Positions 11,916-17,109 of a stretch of 64,000 nucleotides of DNA are shown piece after piece. Position numbers and translations under genes: made by a program. The stretch covers positions 544,001 to 608,000 of the forward strand of contig NZ_JAQNDL010000005.1 of the NCBI RefSeq assembly GCF_028368995.1. The letters are read 5' to 3'. Origin of the DNA: Nannocystis bainbridge. GTDB lineage: Bacteria; Myxococcota_A; Polyangia; Nannocystales; Nannocystaceae. The notes below the pieces were generated by a model. It saw nothing but the letters and a program-made list of their open reading frames with translations, made no database searches and was not told the origin of the DNA. The number at the start of each line of letters is the position of its first letter. The stretch's first letter is position 1.

Positions 11916-12413
11916 ATGCATCGCATCGGCATCGACATCGGCCGCGTCATCATCGGCCCCGTGGTCAACGGGCGCTCCGACACCAGCTTCCTCGGCTCCG
12001 GGCTCGAGCAGGCCATGCTCACCCCGCCGGCCCCCGGCGCCTTCGCCGGGGTCGCCGACCTGGTCGCCCGCACCGGCGGCAACGCCTGGCTGGTGTCCAA
12101 GTGCGGCCCCGGCGTGCAGGCCAAGACGCGCGCCTGGCTGACCCATCACCGCTTCTGGAACGAGACCGGCATGGACCCGTCGCACCTGCGCTTCTGCCTC
12201 GCGCGCCCGGACAAGGCCGTGCACGCGCGCAAGCTCCGGCTCACCGCCATGATCGACGACCGCCTCGACGTGCTCGAGCACCTGCGGGGGATCGTCGAGC
12301 ACAAGCTGCTGTTCGGCGAGCAGAAGCGCCCCGGCCCGCCGTGGACCACCCCCGTGCTCGACTGGGACGCCGTGCGCGCCTGGGCCGCCCGGCAGTGGGC
12401 CTCCGCGGCTTGA
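11916..12413 (+). CDS. HAD-superfamily protein (5'(3')-nucleotidase-like)
   Basis: IGIDIGRVI (motif I variant), WLVSK, DK and MIDDR (motif IV); AGGAG RBS; divergent from LysR. Confidence 0.7.
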   Translation: MHRIGIDIGRVIIGPVVNGRSDTSFLGSGLEQAMLTPPAPGAFAGVADLVARTGGNAWLVSKCGPGVQAKTRAWLTHHRFWNETGMDPSHLRFCLARPDKAVHARKLRLTAMIDDRLDVLEHLRGIVEHKLLFGEQKRPGPPWTTPVLDWDAVRAWAARQWASAA

Positions 12414-12429
12414 GCATCACCACCAACAC

Positions 12430-12465
12430 AAACGGGGCGGGCTCGCCGGCGAGCCCGCCCCGTTT
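12430..12465. terminator. Perfect 36-bp inverted repeat, probable bidirectional terminator
   Basis: AAACGGGGCGGGCTCGCC/GGCGAGCCCGCCCCGTTT between convergent genes. Confidence 0.75.
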
Positions 12466-12479
12466 CGCGTCCGATTCAA

Positions 12480-12513
12480 ACATGCCCGAAAGGACATGGT
12501 TGAAAGTTCATCC
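12480..12513. repeat. ACATGT element copy (3 units)
   Basis: ACATGC-CCGAAAGG-ACATGG-TTGAAAGT-TCATCC. Confidence 0.7.
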
Positions 12514-12531
12514 TCGATCCTGGCGCCCCGC

Positions 12532-13863
12532 TCACGCGAGCAGCGCCGCCGCCTCGTCGAGCGCGCGCACGCAGGCCGTCACCGCATCCTCGCCGCCGAC
12601 CCACCGGATGAACTCCGCCAGGTCGTACGCGTGATGCAGCGACCCCAGCAACGAAGCCCGCGGGTCGCTCGCCGCCCGCCGCATCACCGCCGCGAACACC
12701 CGGGCCGCCTCGTCCGGCGCCACCACCTCGCGCGCGGCCCACAGCTCGTCGAACCACAGCCCCTCGCGCAGCCCCGCCGGCGTCGTCACCTTCTCGAGGG
12801 CCGCTCGCGCGATCGCCCGCCCCTCGGGCTCGCCCGCCCGGGCCGCCGCCAGCAGCAGCAGCATCTCGATCTGCTCCCGTCCGCCCGCGTGCTCGCGCAC
12901 CCGCGAGAACCACACCTCGGCCTCGCCCGCGGCGTGCCAGCTATCGACCAGCACCTGCAGCGCCGCGCTGCGCAGCTCGCCCGCCTCGACCGCACACGCG
13001 CGCTCGAGGCAGCCGCGCACCATCGTCGCTGGCGGTGACGGGCGGTCCGGCGGTCCCAGCACCTGCGTCAGCCCGCCGAAGAATCGCAGCACCAGCGAAT
13101 CGTCGGACCACGTCGCGCCCGTCGGCCACGCCCACGGCTCGCCGCGCGCCGCCCGATGACCACAGATCTGCCCGTGCGCGTCGGCGCGGACCACCGCGTC
13201 GGCGATCGCCGGCAGCAGCCGCTCGGCCTCGTCCGCGTGGCCGAGCGCGGCCAGCCGCACGAACAGACAGGCCCGCGCCTGGCTGAGCTGGTGCCGCCAA
13301 TCGGCGGTGGCCATGCGCTCGCTGACCGCGATCGCGCGCCGCAGCTGCGCCTCGTCCATCCACGGCGCGAGGCGGGCGAAGGGCCCGGGGTCGTTGCCCG
13401 GATCGATCGGCGCCAGGGCGATCGCGGCGAACGCCGCGATCGCGCGATCGATGACCGCCGCGCGGCTCTCGGGCGCCACCGCCTCGGCCAGGGCGGACAG
13501 CCGCCAGGCGAACAACGGATCGCCCGGATCGATCGACGGCGCCTCCTCCTCCTCCGGCGCGTCGTCGCCGTCGCTGCTGTCACCGGTGAGTCGCCGCCGC
13601 AGCTCGACCGCGTACGGCCCGGGTCGATGCGGCCTGCGCTCGCGCATCCACTGGATCACCAGCGCGCCCCGCAGCATGCGTCCCATCGCCGCCGCTCGCC
13701 CCACGCCGCCCTCCACCGCCTCGCCGGCTGCCATGACGTCGCCGCGGAACCACCCGCCGATCGCCGCCGCCAGCTCGTCGCGCTCGGGCCCCCGGCACAG
13801 CGCGCGCCACTGCTCGCGCAACGCCCCCAGTTCGTCCGCATCACCCTTCACGATCGCGGCCAT
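12532..13863 (-). CDS. Hypothetical alpha-helical repeat protein
   Basis: Long ORF with GC3 bias, Ala/Leu/Arg-rich helical pattern (ALGHADEAERLLPAI); no recognised catalytic motif. Confidence 0.7.
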   Translation of the reverse strand: MAAIVKGDADELGALREQWRALCRGPERDELAAAIGGWFRGDVMAAGEAVEGGVGRAAAMGRMLRGALVIQWMRERRPHRPGPYAVELRRRLTGDSSDGDDAPEEEEAPSIDPGDPLFAWRLSALAEAVAPESRAAVIDRAIAAFAAIALAPIDPGNDPGPFARLAPWMDEAQLRRAIAVSERMATADWRHQLSQARACLFVRLAALGHADEAERLLPAIADAVVRADAHGQICGHRAARGEPWAWPTGATWSDDSLVLRFFGGLTQVLGPPDRPSPPATMVRGCLERACAVEAGELRSAALQVLVDSWHAAGEAEVWFSRVREHAGGREQIEMLLLLAAARAGEPEGRAIARAALEKVTTPAGLREGLWFDELWAAREVVAPDEAARVFAAVMRRAASDPRASLLGSLHHAYDLAEFIRWVGGEDAVTACVRALDEAAALLA

Positions 13864-13954
13864 CGTCGACCGCCGCGCTCGCCAGCGCAAGCGTCAGGCG
13901 GCCGGCCCGCGGCGAAACACGTTCTCGCGGGCGTGCGGCCGAACGTACGCAGCG

Positions 13955-15868
13955 TCACCTGTCCGCGAAGAACTCGTGCGCGTCGACGTACTTGACCCCG
14001 AGCGAGCGCGCGAAGTCGCGGTCGCTGTCCATGTCGCCGACCATGACGACCCCCTCGCGCGCCAGCCCGTGGCGCTGGATCAGCGACACGCCGAGCCCCG
14101 GCAGCGGCTTGCGGCAGAAGCAGCCGGCCGGGAACGCCGGGTGCGGGCAATACATCACCTCGGCCACCGGCAGGTCGAGCAGCGCCATCGTGCGCGCGAA
14201 CGCGGCCTCGACCGCCTCCTTGCTGACCGTCCCTGACGCCACCCCGCTCTGGTTCGACACGAAGAACAGCTTGTAGCCCTCGTCGACGAACCGTTGCAGC
14301 ACCTCGCGCCGGTTCGGCAGCAGCTCGACGTCCTCGGGGTCGCGCGGGTAGATCTCGCCGCTCCGGGTCTTGCGCAGCGTGCCGTCGACGTCGAGCAGCA
14401 GGCCCTTGCCGGTGAATTGCGGATCGACGCGTCGTACGAACGGGACCTCCTCGACCGCGCCGAAGCCCTCGTCGACGTGCGGTGCCTCGAAGCTGGCCGC
14501 CCACTTCGCCATCGCCGCCGGCGGCGGCAGGTTGGGGTCGTCCTTCGCCAGGTCCTTCAATTCCTCGGGCCCGAGCAGCTTGCCGTAGCGCTCGAGGATT
14601 CGCAGCACCACGTTCGCGTAGGCCTCGTCGATCGGCGTGGCGAGGTAGCGGCAGCGGACCGGCACCCCGTGCGCGTGCGCCGTGCGGATCACCGCGAACC
14701 GCGACGCCCGCGTCGAATAGGTGTTGTCGAGCACCACCCGCCGCTGCCCCGCGGCCAGCAGCGCGCCGAGCTTCGGCACCAGCTCCTCGAGGCTCCCGCC
14801 GATCAGATCGCGGTTCAGCCGCGCGTAGCCGCGATCGACGTAGCGCGCCACCTCCGACGATTTGCCGGCCCCCTGCACCCCCATCATGATCACGACCTCC
14901 GGCTCGTCGCCCGGGCCCTCGCCGGTCACCAGCGCGCGCAGCCCCGCGGGCACCGTCGGCGGCGCCGTGGCGGCCAGCGCCTCGGGCGTCGGCGCGAACG
15001 AGATCTTGCTCTCGAGGTCGACGCGGTCGCGGTCGCCGAACGGGACCTTCAGCGCGCGCAGGCTCGACTCGACGCTCGCGCGCTTGGTGGCCCCGAACAG
15101 CGGCACCACCGGCGGCCCGAGGGCGACCAGGGCCGCCAGCGCCGCCTCGTGCGGCGTGACGCCGTGGCGCGCCGCGATCGGCTTGACCGCCCGGTTCTTC
15201 AGCAGGTTGGCCGTCTTCGCGTGCCCGCCGAGCGGCCGGTGGGCCAAAAACGGGACGCCGAGCTGCCGCGCCAGCGCCACCAGCCCGTCGACCCCGCTGT
15301 TGCGATCCATGACGCTGAGCTCGTTCTGGATCGCCTGCACCTTGAAGTGCCGCTCGGCCTGGCGCACCTCCGCGATCGACGTGTTCGACAGCCCGAGGTG
15401 CTCGATCTTGCCTTCCTTCTGCAGCTCGGCCAGCGCCGCCAGGCTCTCCTCGAGCGGCGTCTTCGGATCGTTGGCGTGCAGCAGCAGCATGAAGATCCGC
15501 TCGACCCCCAGCGCCTTGAGGCTGCCCTCGACCATCTTGCGCAGGTGCTCGCGGCGCCCGTTCGGCACCCACTTGCCCTTCGGCCGCGCCAGCCCGGCCT
15601 TGGTCACCACGCGGACCTGCTCACGCGGGCCGCTCCAGCCGCTCAGCGCCTTGCGCACCAGCTCCTCGCCGTAGTGCAGGTCCTTGTCGGCGAGCGCGTA
15701 CGAGTCGGCGGTGTCGAGCAGCCGGATGCCCTGATCGAGGGCGAAGCGAATGACCTCGATCGCCTCGGCCTCGGCCGGTCGACCTTCCGTCGACAATCGC
15801 AGCAGACCGAGACCGAGCGGGACTTCGAGGGTACCGAGGACGCCATGGAGGGGGGTAGTGGTGCTCAC
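13955..15868 (-). CDS. Aldo/keto reductase + AAA_33 polynucleotide-kinase-like + HAD-IIIA 3'-phosphatase-like triple fusion
   Basis: AKR: LLDTADSY, TKAG, GKIEHLGLSN, IQNEL. Kinase: GVQGAGKSS, NRD, VLDNT, FEAP..DEGF. HAD: DVDGTL, SNQSGV, CPH..CFCRKP, VGDMDSD. Confidence 0.9.
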   Translation of the reverse strand: MSTTTPLHGVLGTLEVPLGLGLLRLSTEGRPAEAEAIEVIRFALDQGIRLLDTADSYALADKDLHYGEELVRKALSGWSGPREQVRVVTKAGLARPKGKWVPNGRREHLRKMVEGSLKALGVERIFMLLLHANDPKTPLEESLAALAELQKEGKIEHLGLSNTSIAEVRQAERHFKVQAIQNELSVMDRNSGVDGLVALARQLGVPFLAHRPLGGHAKTANLLKNRAVKPIAARHGVTPHEAALAALVALGPPVVPLFGATKRASVESSLRALKVPFGDRDRVDLESKISFAPTPEALAATAPPTVPAGLRALVTGEGPGDEPEVVIMMGVQGAGKSSEVARYVDRGYARLNRDLIGGSLEELVPKLGALLAAGQRRVVLDNTYSTRASRFAVIRTAHAHGVPVRCRYLATPIDEAYANVVLRILERYGKLLGPEELKDLAKDDPNLPPPAAMAKWAASFEAPHVDEGFGAVEEVPFVRRVDPQFTGKGLLLDVDGTLRKTRSGEIYPRDPEDVELLPNRREVLQRFVDEGYKLFFVSNQSGVASGTVSKEAVEAAFARTMALLDLPVAEVMYCPHPAFPAGCFCRKPLPGLGVSLIQRHGLAREGVVMVGDMDSDRDFARSLGVKYVDAHEFFADR

Positions 15869-16065
15869 GGGACCACTGGCATAACGCCGAGCGAGGGGCG
15901 GAATCAACCGCGTCCCCGTGAATTGTCGAGAGCACCCCGCCGCCGCCGTCCCCGCCGCCGGACTTGCCTCACGGCCTCCGACCCCCGAACTGCACGCCGG
16001 CTCCCGCGCTCACGAGCGAGGCCCGTCGCCGACCCACCGCCCGCGCGTCGCTAGGGCCGCGAATC

Positions 16066-16085
16066 ACCTGTCCTCGGGGACATAT
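16066..16085. repeat. ACATGT element copy
   Basis: ACCTGT-CCTCGGGG-ACATAT preceded by GCGAATC. Confidence 0.75.
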
Positions 16086-16175
16086 GCGCCGACGACCGCG
16101 CCTTCATGACGGTCGCGGCCTCCCCTCCTTCGCCCTCACCGGCGAATGCCCTTACGCGGACGCCCCGGCCAGTGA

Positions 16176-16367
16176 TGGCAGGCCCACGTGACGGCGTGGG
16201 CGTCGAGCGGGCTGTCGTGCAAGGACTATGCGGCCAGGGCCGGCGTCAACCCGCGGACATTGACTTGGTGGAAGTCGAAGCTGGCGAGCGTCGGCGCGGC
16301 CGGGCCAGCGCCGGTGAGCTTCGTCGAGGTGACGGAGCAGCTAACCGCGCCGGCGAGCTCAGAGGTC
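16176..16367 (+). pseudogene. tnpA: IS66-family accessory protein TnpA remnant
   Basis: WQAHVTAWASSGLSCKDYAARAGVNPRTLTWWKSKL...SFVEV; in-frame TGA immediately upstream; no tnpB or tnpC follows. Confidence 0.7.
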
Positions 16368-16572
16368 GCGGTGATCGCTGTTCTGTCAGCTGCGCGACTC
16401 GGTGGTGCGGGACCGGGGCTGACGGCGCACCCGCGACTTCCCGGCCACGTCGACATGATGACCGCGTGATCCCACGGCGCGGCGCGGTCGGGTGCGCACG
16501 GCGGAGCGAGGCGCGACGTCGACCACCGCGCCTGCGGGGACCGCGACGCAGATCGTGTGCTACTCGAGGGCG

Positions 16573-17109
16573 GTGACCACGACGCACACAGGGTTCGCAA
16601 TCGCCACGGAGACGATCCTGGAGACCGACTGGAGGCGCGTCGGGATGGTCGTAGCGATCGGGACAGTGGTCCCCGCGACCGTCGGCGCGCCGTTCTGGCA
16701 GGCGTTCATGGCTGATACGGGCGGCCTCCTGAACGCGTTCCAAGCGCTCGCGCGGACGCTCTTCTTTGTCATGGGGGGGCTGATCGTCGTCTGGCTCATG
16801 GTGCCCGGGGCGACCTACATCCGGCGGACCGCGATCCGCATCGATCTGTTCGAGCACGGCGTCGAGCTGCGCGACGCCGCGGGCGCGGTGCTCGGCCAGA
16901 CCGCCGACGGCAGCCTGCGGGTGACGCACGCCAACCTGCGGTCGACCAAGAGCATGCTGGGTGGTCTGCGCCTCGACCATCGCGGCGGCGCGCTGCTGAT
17001 CTCGCCGAACCCGACGCTCGCGCCGTGGCCGGGTCAAGCAGCGCAGGATGGCATGTGGCACTTCGTGTCCGGCCCGATGTACGAGGGGCTGCGGCGCCTC
17101 GCCGCGTGA
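16573..17109 (+). CDS. Hypothetical membrane protein
   Basis: Two hydrophobic segments followed by a beta-rich soluble domain; GAGGG RBS before GTG. Confidence 0.7.
   Translation: MTTTHTGFAIATETILETDWRRVGMVVAIGTVVPATVGAPFWQAFMADTGGLLNAFQALARTLFFVMGGLIVVWLMVPGATYIRRTAIRIDLFEHGVELRDAAGAVLGQTADGSLRVTHANLRSTKSMLGGLRLDHRGGALLISPNPTLAPWPGQAAQDGMWHFVSGPMYEGLRRLAA

Follow-up and report, generated by a model that had tools for sequence, protein, structure and literature searches.

The genome of Nannocystis bainbridge (NCBI RefSeq assembly GCF_028368995.1) contains, on contig NZ_JAQNDL010000005.1, a gene whose product joins three enzymatic domains in one chain: an aldo-keto reductase (AKR), a polynucleotide kinase of the PNKP type and a HAD-IIIA phosphatase with a Zn loop. 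It lies on the minus strand of the 64,000-nucleotide stretch analysed here (positions 544,001 to 608,000 of the contig; hereafter the window, numbered from its first letter). We read the fusion as a self-contained polynucleotide end-healing enzyme with a catalytic AKR, and put the probability of this reading at about one half. The enzymatic activities, the carbonyl substrate and the choice between DNA and RNA as target are all predicted from sequence. More tentatively, the AKR would reduce 5'-aldehyde termini of DNA or RNA, the kinase would phosphorylate them and the HAD would clear the 3'-phosphate: a specific route that we consider possible but less likely than not.

An earlier reading of the letters of the window (the original prediction) had already assigned nucleic-acid end healing to the kinase-HAD half. 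In outline, this assignment is upheld by a kinase domain that matches PNKP only, by viral Pnkp folds and by phage RNA-repair islands. What appears to be new is the combination, in one polynucleotide kinase-phosphatase, of a fused reductase with a HAD that has a Zn loop.

Domain composition of the fusion protein

Residue numbers follow the longest reading of the gene, 650 amino acids (protein P0001); subtracting 13 gives the numbering from the GTG start discussed below. The kinase domain has the P-loop G343-x4-G348-K349-S350, Arg366-Asp367 (N-R-D), Asp394 (D-N-T), Arg403, Arg436 and Glu480-Gly481. We take the roles of the P-loop, of the R-D base and of the downstream Asp and Arg residues to be those described in PNKP and T4 Pnk studies. 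The domain matches Pfam AAA_33 above the gathering score (residues 338-434, E 8.8e-11), and the kinase stretch of TIGR01663 'PNK-3'Pase' covers positions 363-509. Searched alone against 177,635 PDB sequences, it retrieves only PNKP at E<=0.01 (1.2e-13; the next match is at 0.045). For the kinase-HAD half as a whole, the best PDB match is mouse PNKP (E 6e-26), with the kinase (independent E-value, i-E, 2e-11) and the phosphatase (i-E 7e-10) aligned in reversed order. By these alignments, the kinase domain belongs to the PNKP-type polynucleotide kinase clade, and the family is the closest prokaryotic sequence relative of the eukaryotic PNKP kinase encountered in this analysis.

The original prediction had described a fusion of an AKR with a eukaryote-type PNKP, and most of this description holds. 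Every motif string that it quoted is found in the translation, and its three-domain architecture is reproduced by Pfam matches for Aldo_ket_red, AAA_33 and PNK3P, all above their gathering scores. Mammalian PNKP is the sole relative of solved structure for the kinase domain. The PNKP strings that had been quoted for comparison are visible in the PDB alignment, though of the mouse and not the human protein; the same alignment confirms the proposed order of kinase then phosphatase, which is T4-like and opposite to that of PNKP. The term 'eukaryote-type' suits the kinase, whose only match is PNKP, but not the HAD, for which GmhB and PNKP scores are about equal and the equivalog models failed.

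The AKR domain is assigned by Pfam PF00248 Aldo_ket_red (residues 30-294, E 5.6e-49, 167.2 bits against a gathering score of 24). By sequence and by fold its nearest structures are those of AKR13 enzymes: AKR13B2 (8hnq, E 5e-34), perakine reductase (AKR13D1) and the pyridoxal reductase PdxI (8tf1/8te8). They share 27-32% identity with the domain, a template modelling (TM) score of ~0.83 on the target, the short form of ~286 amino acids and the same catalytic tetrad. The tetrad, whose integrity had been anticipated, aligns with that of AKR13B2 and is conserved across the family. Unlike these free-standing enzymes with small-molecule substrates, the AKR here is the N-terminal module of a kinase-phosphatase. 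In NCBIfam it matches NF007695 'oxidoreductase' (105 bits) and, weakly, Kv_beta TIGR01293 (40 bits); the DkgA/B equivalog cut-offs failed. We predict a motif-intact, NAD(P)H-dependent carbonyl reductase. The same genome also encodes a free-standing AKR (G000:C1:3100155-3101054) that is 40% identical to the AKR domain of the fusion.

The HAD domain has motif I as Asp506-x-Asp508-G-Thr510, motif II as Ser551 (S-N-Q), motif III as Lys600 and motif IV as G-D-x3-D (624-629). Four Zn ligands, Cys587, His589, Cys596 and Cys598, align with the motif in the GmhB structures 3l8h and 4pnh: the C-x-H...C-x-C-R-K-P string that had been called GmhB-type falls on the Zn-loop region of these structures. The domain passes HAD-IIIA TIGR01662 (76.5 bits, cut-off 44.6) and Pfam PF08645 PNK3P (residues 505-647, E 5.2e-9, 36.5 bits, gathering score 22), the latter a broad model that does not by itself prove a DNA substrate. 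The original prediction had suggested weighing PNK3P against GmhB. The GmhB models failed: NF006506 with 71.1 bits against 178, TIGR00213 with 44.7 against 149.6 and NF050049 with 34.3 against 250. The histidinol-phosphatase model TIGR01656 is a near miss (75.9 against 84.15), and the HisB N-terminal model TIGR01261 also failed (42.5 against 140). In the PDB, the HAD alone scores 52 bits with GmhB 3l8h, 49 with 4pnh, 46 with PNKP, 35 with Escherichia coli GmhB and 32 with HisB-N.

The two halves of the HAD differ in their likeness. The first half (motif I, the T-R-S-G-x-x-Tyr-Pro loop and E-G-Y-K-L...S-N-Q) aligns to PNKP without gaps, whereas GmhB needs a gap of two residues. The second half, from C-P-H to C-x-C-R-K-P-L-P-G, matches the Zn loop of GmhB; PNKP has no cysteines there. 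As far as alignment can tell, the domain is mixed, PNKP-like at first and GmhB/HisB-like in the Zn loop of its second half. A separate GmhB-like HAD, 38% identical to that of the fusion, is encoded in the same genome at G000:C1:530642-531058.

An AlphaFold2 model of the whole protein, built from an alignment of 127 sequences, has a mean predicted local distance difference test (pLDDT) of 95.0 and a predicted TM score (pTM) of 0.88. In this model the three domains adopt one compact, fixed arrangement, with the AKR held against the other two. A Foldseek search of the PDB with the full model returns a list filled by AKR structures and is uninformative on the kinase-HAD half. Against viral structures, giant-virus AKRs come first, followed by kinase/phosphatases aligned over both kinase and HAD: PseT, baculovirus Nrk1, actinophage Pnk and Catovirus/Hokovirus PNKP. 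Two Hokovirus entries of BFVD (A0A1V0SF72 and A0A1V0SEI7, 'aldo/keto reductase', 723-725 amino acids) match through their AKR domain only, and are AKRs joined to some other module.

Compared with known systems, the fusion resembles several and coincides with none. Mammalian PNKP (1yj5, 3zvl, 3u7e) shares the P-loop, N-R-D, D-N-T, the C-terminal F-E-x-P-x3-E-G-F block and the gapless first half of the HAD, with motif I, a T-R-S-G-x-x-aromatic-P loop and E-G-Y-K-L...N-Q. It is, however, built as FHA, HAD 3'-phosphatase and 5'-kinase, while the fusion reverses this order, lacks the FHA and starts with an AKR; nor does PNKP show a Cys/His Zn loop in the alignment, as the fusion HAD does. T4 Pnkp (PseT; PF25109, phrog_505) has the same kinase-then-HAD order and overall fold, and both families occur in phage RNA-repair islands beside RNA ligases. 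Its sequence similarity is nevertheless marginal: phrog_505 gives 22.4 bits with the window protein (E 1.5e-4), and PF25109 HAD_PNKP is not among the Pfam matches of that protein at E<=0.01. The T4-type enzyme has no Zn loop in that comparison, and no AKR. GmhB and HisB-N share the C-x-H...C-x-C-R-K-P-x-P-G Zn loop and the motif III/IV region, and GmhB gives the best PDB scores for the HAD; yet their cut-offs all failed, and the fusion differs from them by its PNKP-type kinase, its AKR and a PNKP-like loop length after motif I. As published, the Pnkp of the Clostridium thermocellum Pnkp-Hen1 system likewise heals ends in a bacterium and combines several domains, a P-loop polynucleotide kinase among them. 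There, however, the phosphatase is a binuclear metallophosphoesterase, and a ligase domain and a Hen1 partner are present; the fusion has a HAD phosphatase, no ligase domain and no Hen1 partner.

Conservation and spread of the family

Conservation was followed in a first alignment of 27 sequences and in the larger one of 127, of which 70 are three-domain proteins. In the first, conservation reaches at least 90% at the residues of the AKR tetrad and at the four Zn ligands, and the kinase shows no variation in its P-loop, Arg366-Asp367, Asp394, Arg403, Arg436 or Glu480-Gly481. Of the 70 three-domain proteins, 69 retain a complete tetrad and 69 the kinase motifs, but 22 have lost at least one motif-I aspartate of the HAD. 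A set of 73 open reading frames (ORFs) from named genomes behaves alike: all 72 that extend into the AKR domain have the full tetrad, the kinase is intact in 73/73 and the HAD motifs are intact in 54/73. Among the 19 ORFs with altered HAD motifs, 18 are acidobacterial, Trp usually standing in for the nucleophile, and one comes from a deltaproteobacterial metagenome-assembled genome (MAG).

The acidobacterial proteins form a clade (L130-L157) in which the HAD nucleophile Asp is replaced, mostly by Trp, and S-N-Q becomes S-W-Q. These proteins keep the Zn ligands as well as the kinase motifs and the AKR tetrad, and their HAD is thus a pseudo-phosphatase that selection still maintains. Every HAD-intact protein has the aromatic residue of the S-G-E-x-[YF]-P loop; among the HAD-dead acidobacterial ORFs having the loop, only one retains it. 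The equivalent Phe of mouse PNKP contacts the DNA 3' end. The window protein itself sits in a clade with all three domains intact.

Since the tetrad and the kinase motifs are nearly always kept and the HAD nucleophile is lost in the acidobacterial clade, the AKR and the kinase form the conserved core, phosphatase chemistry being dispensable in one lineage that retains the Zn-loop body. Such a core is as expected if the product of the reductase feeds the kinase.

The AKR fold can also serve as a regulatory subunit, as it does in Kv-beta, which likewise keeps its tetrad. The protein could then be a plain polynucleotide kinase-phosphatase whose AKR acts as a sensor of NADP(H) or as a scaffold, tuning the enzyme to the redox state or oligomerising it. 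The weak Kv_beta match, the high pTM and tight packing of the model, and the occurrence of the kinase-HAD core without AKR in phages and at 3/29 myxobacterial loci all agree with this idea. We nonetheless judge it improbable: the retention of the tetrad (69/70 and 72/72), across phyla and down to ~40% identity, exceeds what cofactor binding needs. A catalytic AKR within an end-healing enzyme remains the reading that we prefer.

The fusion is not a one-off: it recurs across phyla. The nearest proteins are an N. pusilla 'aldo/keto reductase' (89% identity) and homologues from Minicystis (80%) and Sorangium (76%). The gene is present in 8/10 other Nannocystis genomes, the two without it being 64% and 84% complete, and in 2/14 genera of the rest of the taxonomic family. 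In a sample of 400 genomes of the phylum, 33 have a match spanning kinase and HAD (our own count from the table of matches); all other matches at E<=1e-10 are confined to the kinase or to the HAD, those to the HAD being GmhB-like. At 26 of 29 loci from the phylum, AKR, kinase and HAD lie in one frame, and 3 have the kinase-HAD alone.

A search of one genome per GTDB species finds at least 572 relatives among 600 pattern-matched stretches. The best 80 of these come from Myxococcota, Planctomycetota (57-61% identity), Lysobacterales MAGs (62-64%), Verrucomicrobiota MAGs (65-73%) and Acidobacteriota (~41%), some MAG labels being possibly due to binning errors; 79 of the 80 span all three domains. 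An exhaustive search with the kinase-HAD half yields 358 clusters at 50% identity (E<=1e-30), in three length classes: ~310-330 amino acids (kinase-HAD), 560-650 (AKR fusion) and 740-860 (AKR fusion with an extra N-terminal region). Database labels read 'aldo/keto reductase', 'HAD-IIIA family hydrolase', 'oxidoreductase' or 'histidinol-phosphate phosphatase family protein': the family is present in databases but not named there as a kinase-phosphatase. A literature search in full text, without supplements, found no paper on an AKR-polynucleotide kinase fusion and no description of a DNA or nucleoside 5'-aldehyde reductase.

Some members carry further modules. Many myxobacterial proteins (L011-L037, e.g. 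L036:3217-3771 on the minus strand; P0124, P0125, P0132) have an extra N-terminal domain of ~180 amino acids: a long helix, then a helix-helix-hairpin unit, in which Leu/Glu/Leu, Arg, Ser and Pro positions do not vary. Its AlphaFold2 model has a pLDDT of 86.5; it has no Pfam or usable Atlas match and no significant fold match in the PDB, where the weak top hits (best E 0.39) are winged-helix regulators. This domain is absent from the window protein, and one query did not find it in the 90.5%-complete genome. Two MAG proteins of 1059-1061 amino acids (L128, L129; P0133) extend ~306 amino acids past the HAD, with no Pfam match at E<=0.001. In P0163 (818 amino acids), the region before the kinase is not alignable to the AKR and looks like another, repeat-rich N-terminal module.

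Genomic surroundings of unfused and fused genes

Unfused homologues of the kinase-HAD half occur on phage-like contigs. Two 'uncultured phage' records of 595 and 462 kb encode homologues 40% and 31% identical over 94-95% of this half. NAD-linked genes lie near both (L076:9898-11577 and L077:9046-9522): in one record a glutamine-dependent NAD synthase is found 1 kb downstream, and in the other the adjacent gene is that of a NADAR-domain protein. With two cases, this may be coincidence.

A scan of metagenome contigs with an alignment of the unfused members gave 80 loci, and many of the contigs are 250-500 kb long and densely packed with ORFs on the same strand. The 37 loci nearest to the query (55-63% identity) form a sublineage; they are mutually related, not independent, and lie on contigs that look phage-like. 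Here the gene lies inside an RNA-repair island. The islands contain a T4-type Pnkp (PF25109 HAD_PNKP, E 2e-46; phrog_505, E 3e-78), an Rnl2-like RNA ligase (PF09414), a T4 Rnl1-type ligase (PF09511), an RlaP nucleotidyltransferase (PF10127), a thioredoxin, an AAA ATPase and an SPFH protein. By BLAST, a T4-type Pnkp is near 24 of the 37 loci, Rnl1 near 16, the Rnl2-like ligase near 12 and RlaP near 10, many of the others being short contigs. Ten neighbours sampled at the more distant loci gave, by Pfam, a Thg1-like enzyme in one locus, DUF4419, SPFH, GNAT and a flavoprotein.

In these islands two kinase-phosphatase types stand side by side, an unfused relative of the AKR fusion and a canonical T4-type Pnkp. 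The kinase-HAD half of the window protein is 41% identical to the ~311-amino-acid family member of the island over 313 amino acids (E 1e-81); with the neighbouring T4-type Pnkp of locus L178, BLASTP aligns the P-loop region only (E 0.002). The two types sharing contigs are probably not redundant. The RNA-repair context is the sole informative genomic association found and, as a matter of gene content, favours nucleic-acid ends over sugar phosphates as substrates.

Around the fusion, no neighbour is conserved: clustering of ORFs at 20 loci of the phylum and 80 named loci returns as recurrent families only generic ones (histidine kinases, response regulators and short-chain dehydrogenases/reductases). 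No metabolic or biosynthetic operon surrounds it in these 100 loci. Both observations fit an autonomous repair enzyme.

In the window, the gene is followed by a co-oriented gene for an Ala/Arg-rich helical-repeat protein of 452 amino acids, which the original prediction had offered as a possible partner in a repair or anti-toxin system. Together they could be halves of a two-gene defence or toxin-antitoxin system, as the spacing of 64 bp, the shared strand and the adjacency in 5 other Nannocystis genomes might suggest. The 452-amino-acid gene is always adjacent where present, in 5/10 same-genus genomes; the other five, although three of them have the fusion, did not yield it, and neither did 30 relatives beyond the genus, whereas the fusion is in 8/10 and extends to other genera and phyla. 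The protein has no Pfam, NCBIfam or PADLOC match, and its look-alikes in the Atlas, where the entry begins at residue 10 (a start at 13863), are 'hypothetical' or TPR-like only (0.86-0.92). PADLOC-DB 2.0 returns no family for the fusion and 3 neighbours. We rejected the gene as a conserved partner because it is genus-restricted and has no family or defence match: the pairing is local, genus-level synteny. The proposed defence role for the two genes is accordingly most improbable. Two further ORFs of the window stand on the plus strand nearby: 11916-12413, with a G+C content at third codon positions (GC3) of 0.98 and no Pfam, NCBIfam or PADLOC match, and 16492-17109, with a GC3 of 0.91 and no match in the PADLOC scan.

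The features of the gene and its surroundings are collected in Table 1. The longest reading is the ORF 13955..15907 on the minus strand, which starts at the farthest TTG (15907). A shorter product, starting at the GTG, is most likely the real one, because in an upstream alignment of six Nannocystis sequences (that of the window and five others) the conserved upstream stretch ends at this GTG and gives way to the coding sequence, the AlphaFold2 model of the long reading is disordered over residues 1-14 (pLDDT <50) and homologues are ~633-650 amino acids long. The original prediction had ended the gene at this very position. In a window of 70-75% G+C, from a genome of 11.0 Mb in 5 contigs, the long ORF has a gene-like GC3 of 0.94 and is the sole gene left at its coordinates after GC3 filtering: it is a genuine gene.

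The block upstream of the GTG that is kept among Nannocystis orthologues could be a promoter or operator; a consensus promoter and terminator scan of 12300-16600 found no site, in the block or elsewhere. A search for signs of expression found environmental runs only, with small word shares (0.05-0.14). Contigs at least 85% alike come from relatives, and two true RNA libraries cover parts of the gene, with DNA carry-over possible.

Table 1. Coordinates of the fusion gene, its predicted domains and associated features (window positions, except for the last row).
Feature	Coordinates	Strand	Details
Whole coding sequence	13955..15868	-	637 amino acids from GTG at 15868; stop 13955-13957
AKR13-type aldo-keto reductase domain	15026..15820	-	residues 30-294; tetrad Asp65, Tyr70, Lys103, His144
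AKR-kinase linker	14906..15025	-	residues 295-334; mostly coil, block pLDDT 86-96
PNKP-type P-loop 5'-kinase domain	14417..14905	-	residues 335-497
HAD-IIIA phosphatase domain with Zn loop	13967..14407	-	residues 501-647
Upstream block kept among Nannocystis orthologues	15869..15935	-	directly 5' of GTG; almost no leader left
Ala/Arg-rich helical-repeat gene (452 amino acids)	12532..13863/13890	-	64 bp downstream of the fusion, co-oriented
RNA-repair islands with unfused relatives (examples)	L158-L191, e.g. L178:1-14933, L177, L163		contigs up to 498 kb

Proposed reaction, its alternatives and its significance

Kinases of the PNKP and T4 Pnkp type phosphorylate 5'-OH ends, and the HAD domains of these enzymes remove 3'-phosphates. 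Cleavage at C5' leaves a 3'-phosphate on the opposite side of the break, and borohydride reduction followed by polynucleotide kinase is the classical chemical labelling of the 5'-aldehyde ends so formed. In the proposed reaction, oxidation of C5' by radicals or enediynes would give a 5'-terminal nucleoside-5'-aldehyde with a 3'-phosphate across the break. The AKR would reduce this aldehyde to 5'-CH2OH with NADPH, the PNKP-type kinase would convert the 5'-OH to a 5'-phosphate, and the Zn-loop HAD-IIIA domain would remove the 3'-phosphate, leaving a ligatable nick with no nucleotide excised. The chemistry would be sequential, from carbonyl to alcohol to phosphate ester, the AKR making the substrate of the kinase.

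A 5'-aldehyde terminus fits the architecture better than the AKR substrates named in the original prediction, because here the product of reduction is the substrate of the kinase. Reduction of abasic (AP) sites, 3'-unsaturated aldehydes or dicarbonyls would yield no substrate for kinase or HAD. As for the target, either nucleic acid may be meant: the phage context points to RNA, whereas the knowledge of PNKP and of the lesion chemistry comes from DNA.

According to a 2025 review, 5'-aldehyde termini are the expected major product of sugar oxidation and the main product of neocarzinostatin, with a half-life of days; the only repair known for them in vitro is non-specific, by strand displacement and flap removal in a long-patch mode (PMC12564780). 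A 2025 preprint likewise presents these termini as major and long-lived, with non-specific long-patch repair as the only known repair (10.1101/2025.02.19.636396).

The serious alternative, although we consider it unlikely, is a small-molecule enzyme: the AKR would make an alcohol from the carbonyl of a metabolite, the kinase would phosphorylate it and the HAD would trim a phosphate. Pyridoxal going through pyridoxine to its phosphate, an aldose going to an alditol phosphate, or the salvage of free nucleoside-5'-aldehyde would be examples. The presence of PdxI and other small-molecule AKR13 enzymes among the nearest structures of the AKR speaks for such a route, together with the NF007695 match, a HAD that has a Zn loop and matches GmhB/HisB-type sugar or histidinol phosphatases no worse than PNKP, the dispensability of the HAD in one clade, and the failure to find DNA-repair neighbours at 80 named loci. 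The kinase domain, however, matches no kinase family but PNKP, and known pyridoxal kinases have another fold. It would be futile for a kinase and a phosphatase to work on the same small molecule, except at different positions. Moreover, the fusion sits in no metabolic or biosynthetic operon at 100 loci, the equivalog cut-offs for GmhB, HisB and DkgA/B all failed, and the unfused core is found among RNA ligases and Pnkp on phage-like contigs.

Several observations also weigh against polynucleotide end healing itself. The nearest AKR relatives are all small-molecule enzymes, acting on perakine, 3-keto-DON or pyridoxal, and we know of no AKR shown to act on a nucleic-acid terminus. The PNKP equivalog TIGR01663 failed (106.7 against 502.8 bits), matching as two stretches in reversed order without the FHA, and so did the DNA 3'-phosphatase equivalog TIGR01664 (48.5 against 107.65 bits). 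The HAD scores slightly higher with the GmhB structures than with PNKP and has a GmhB/HisB Zn loop that PNKP lacks in the alignment. The ligase, RtcB or Hen1 genes that the original prediction had thought to look for are not found beside the bacterial fusion at the 20 and 80 loci, nor is Ku. Near the unfused kinase-HAD genes, no AKR-like ORF occurs at any of the 80 loci (40 of them longer than 8 kb): the link to the AKR is seen only as a fusion. RNA-repair partners were not detected by BLAST at the other 43, more distant loci, and the 37 loci of the sublineage in which they occur count for less by their mutual relatedness and their provisional phage label. Finally, since the islands already hold a T4-type Pnkp, the role of the family there may differ from plain end healing.

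If the 5'-aldehyde route is correct, one widespread protein would join the three chemistries for reversing a C5'-oxidised break, namely reduction of the carbonyl, phosphorylation of the 5' end and dephosphorylation of the 3' end. No AKR would have been shown before it to act on a nucleic-acid terminus, and its activity would be the first specific one for processing 5'-aldehyde ends and would amount to direct-reversal repair of C5'-oxidised strand breaks that are otherwise not ligatable. Even should the aldehyde idea fail, the fusion would stand for a large, unannotated family of bacterial and phage kinase-phosphatases, distinct from T4 Pnkp.

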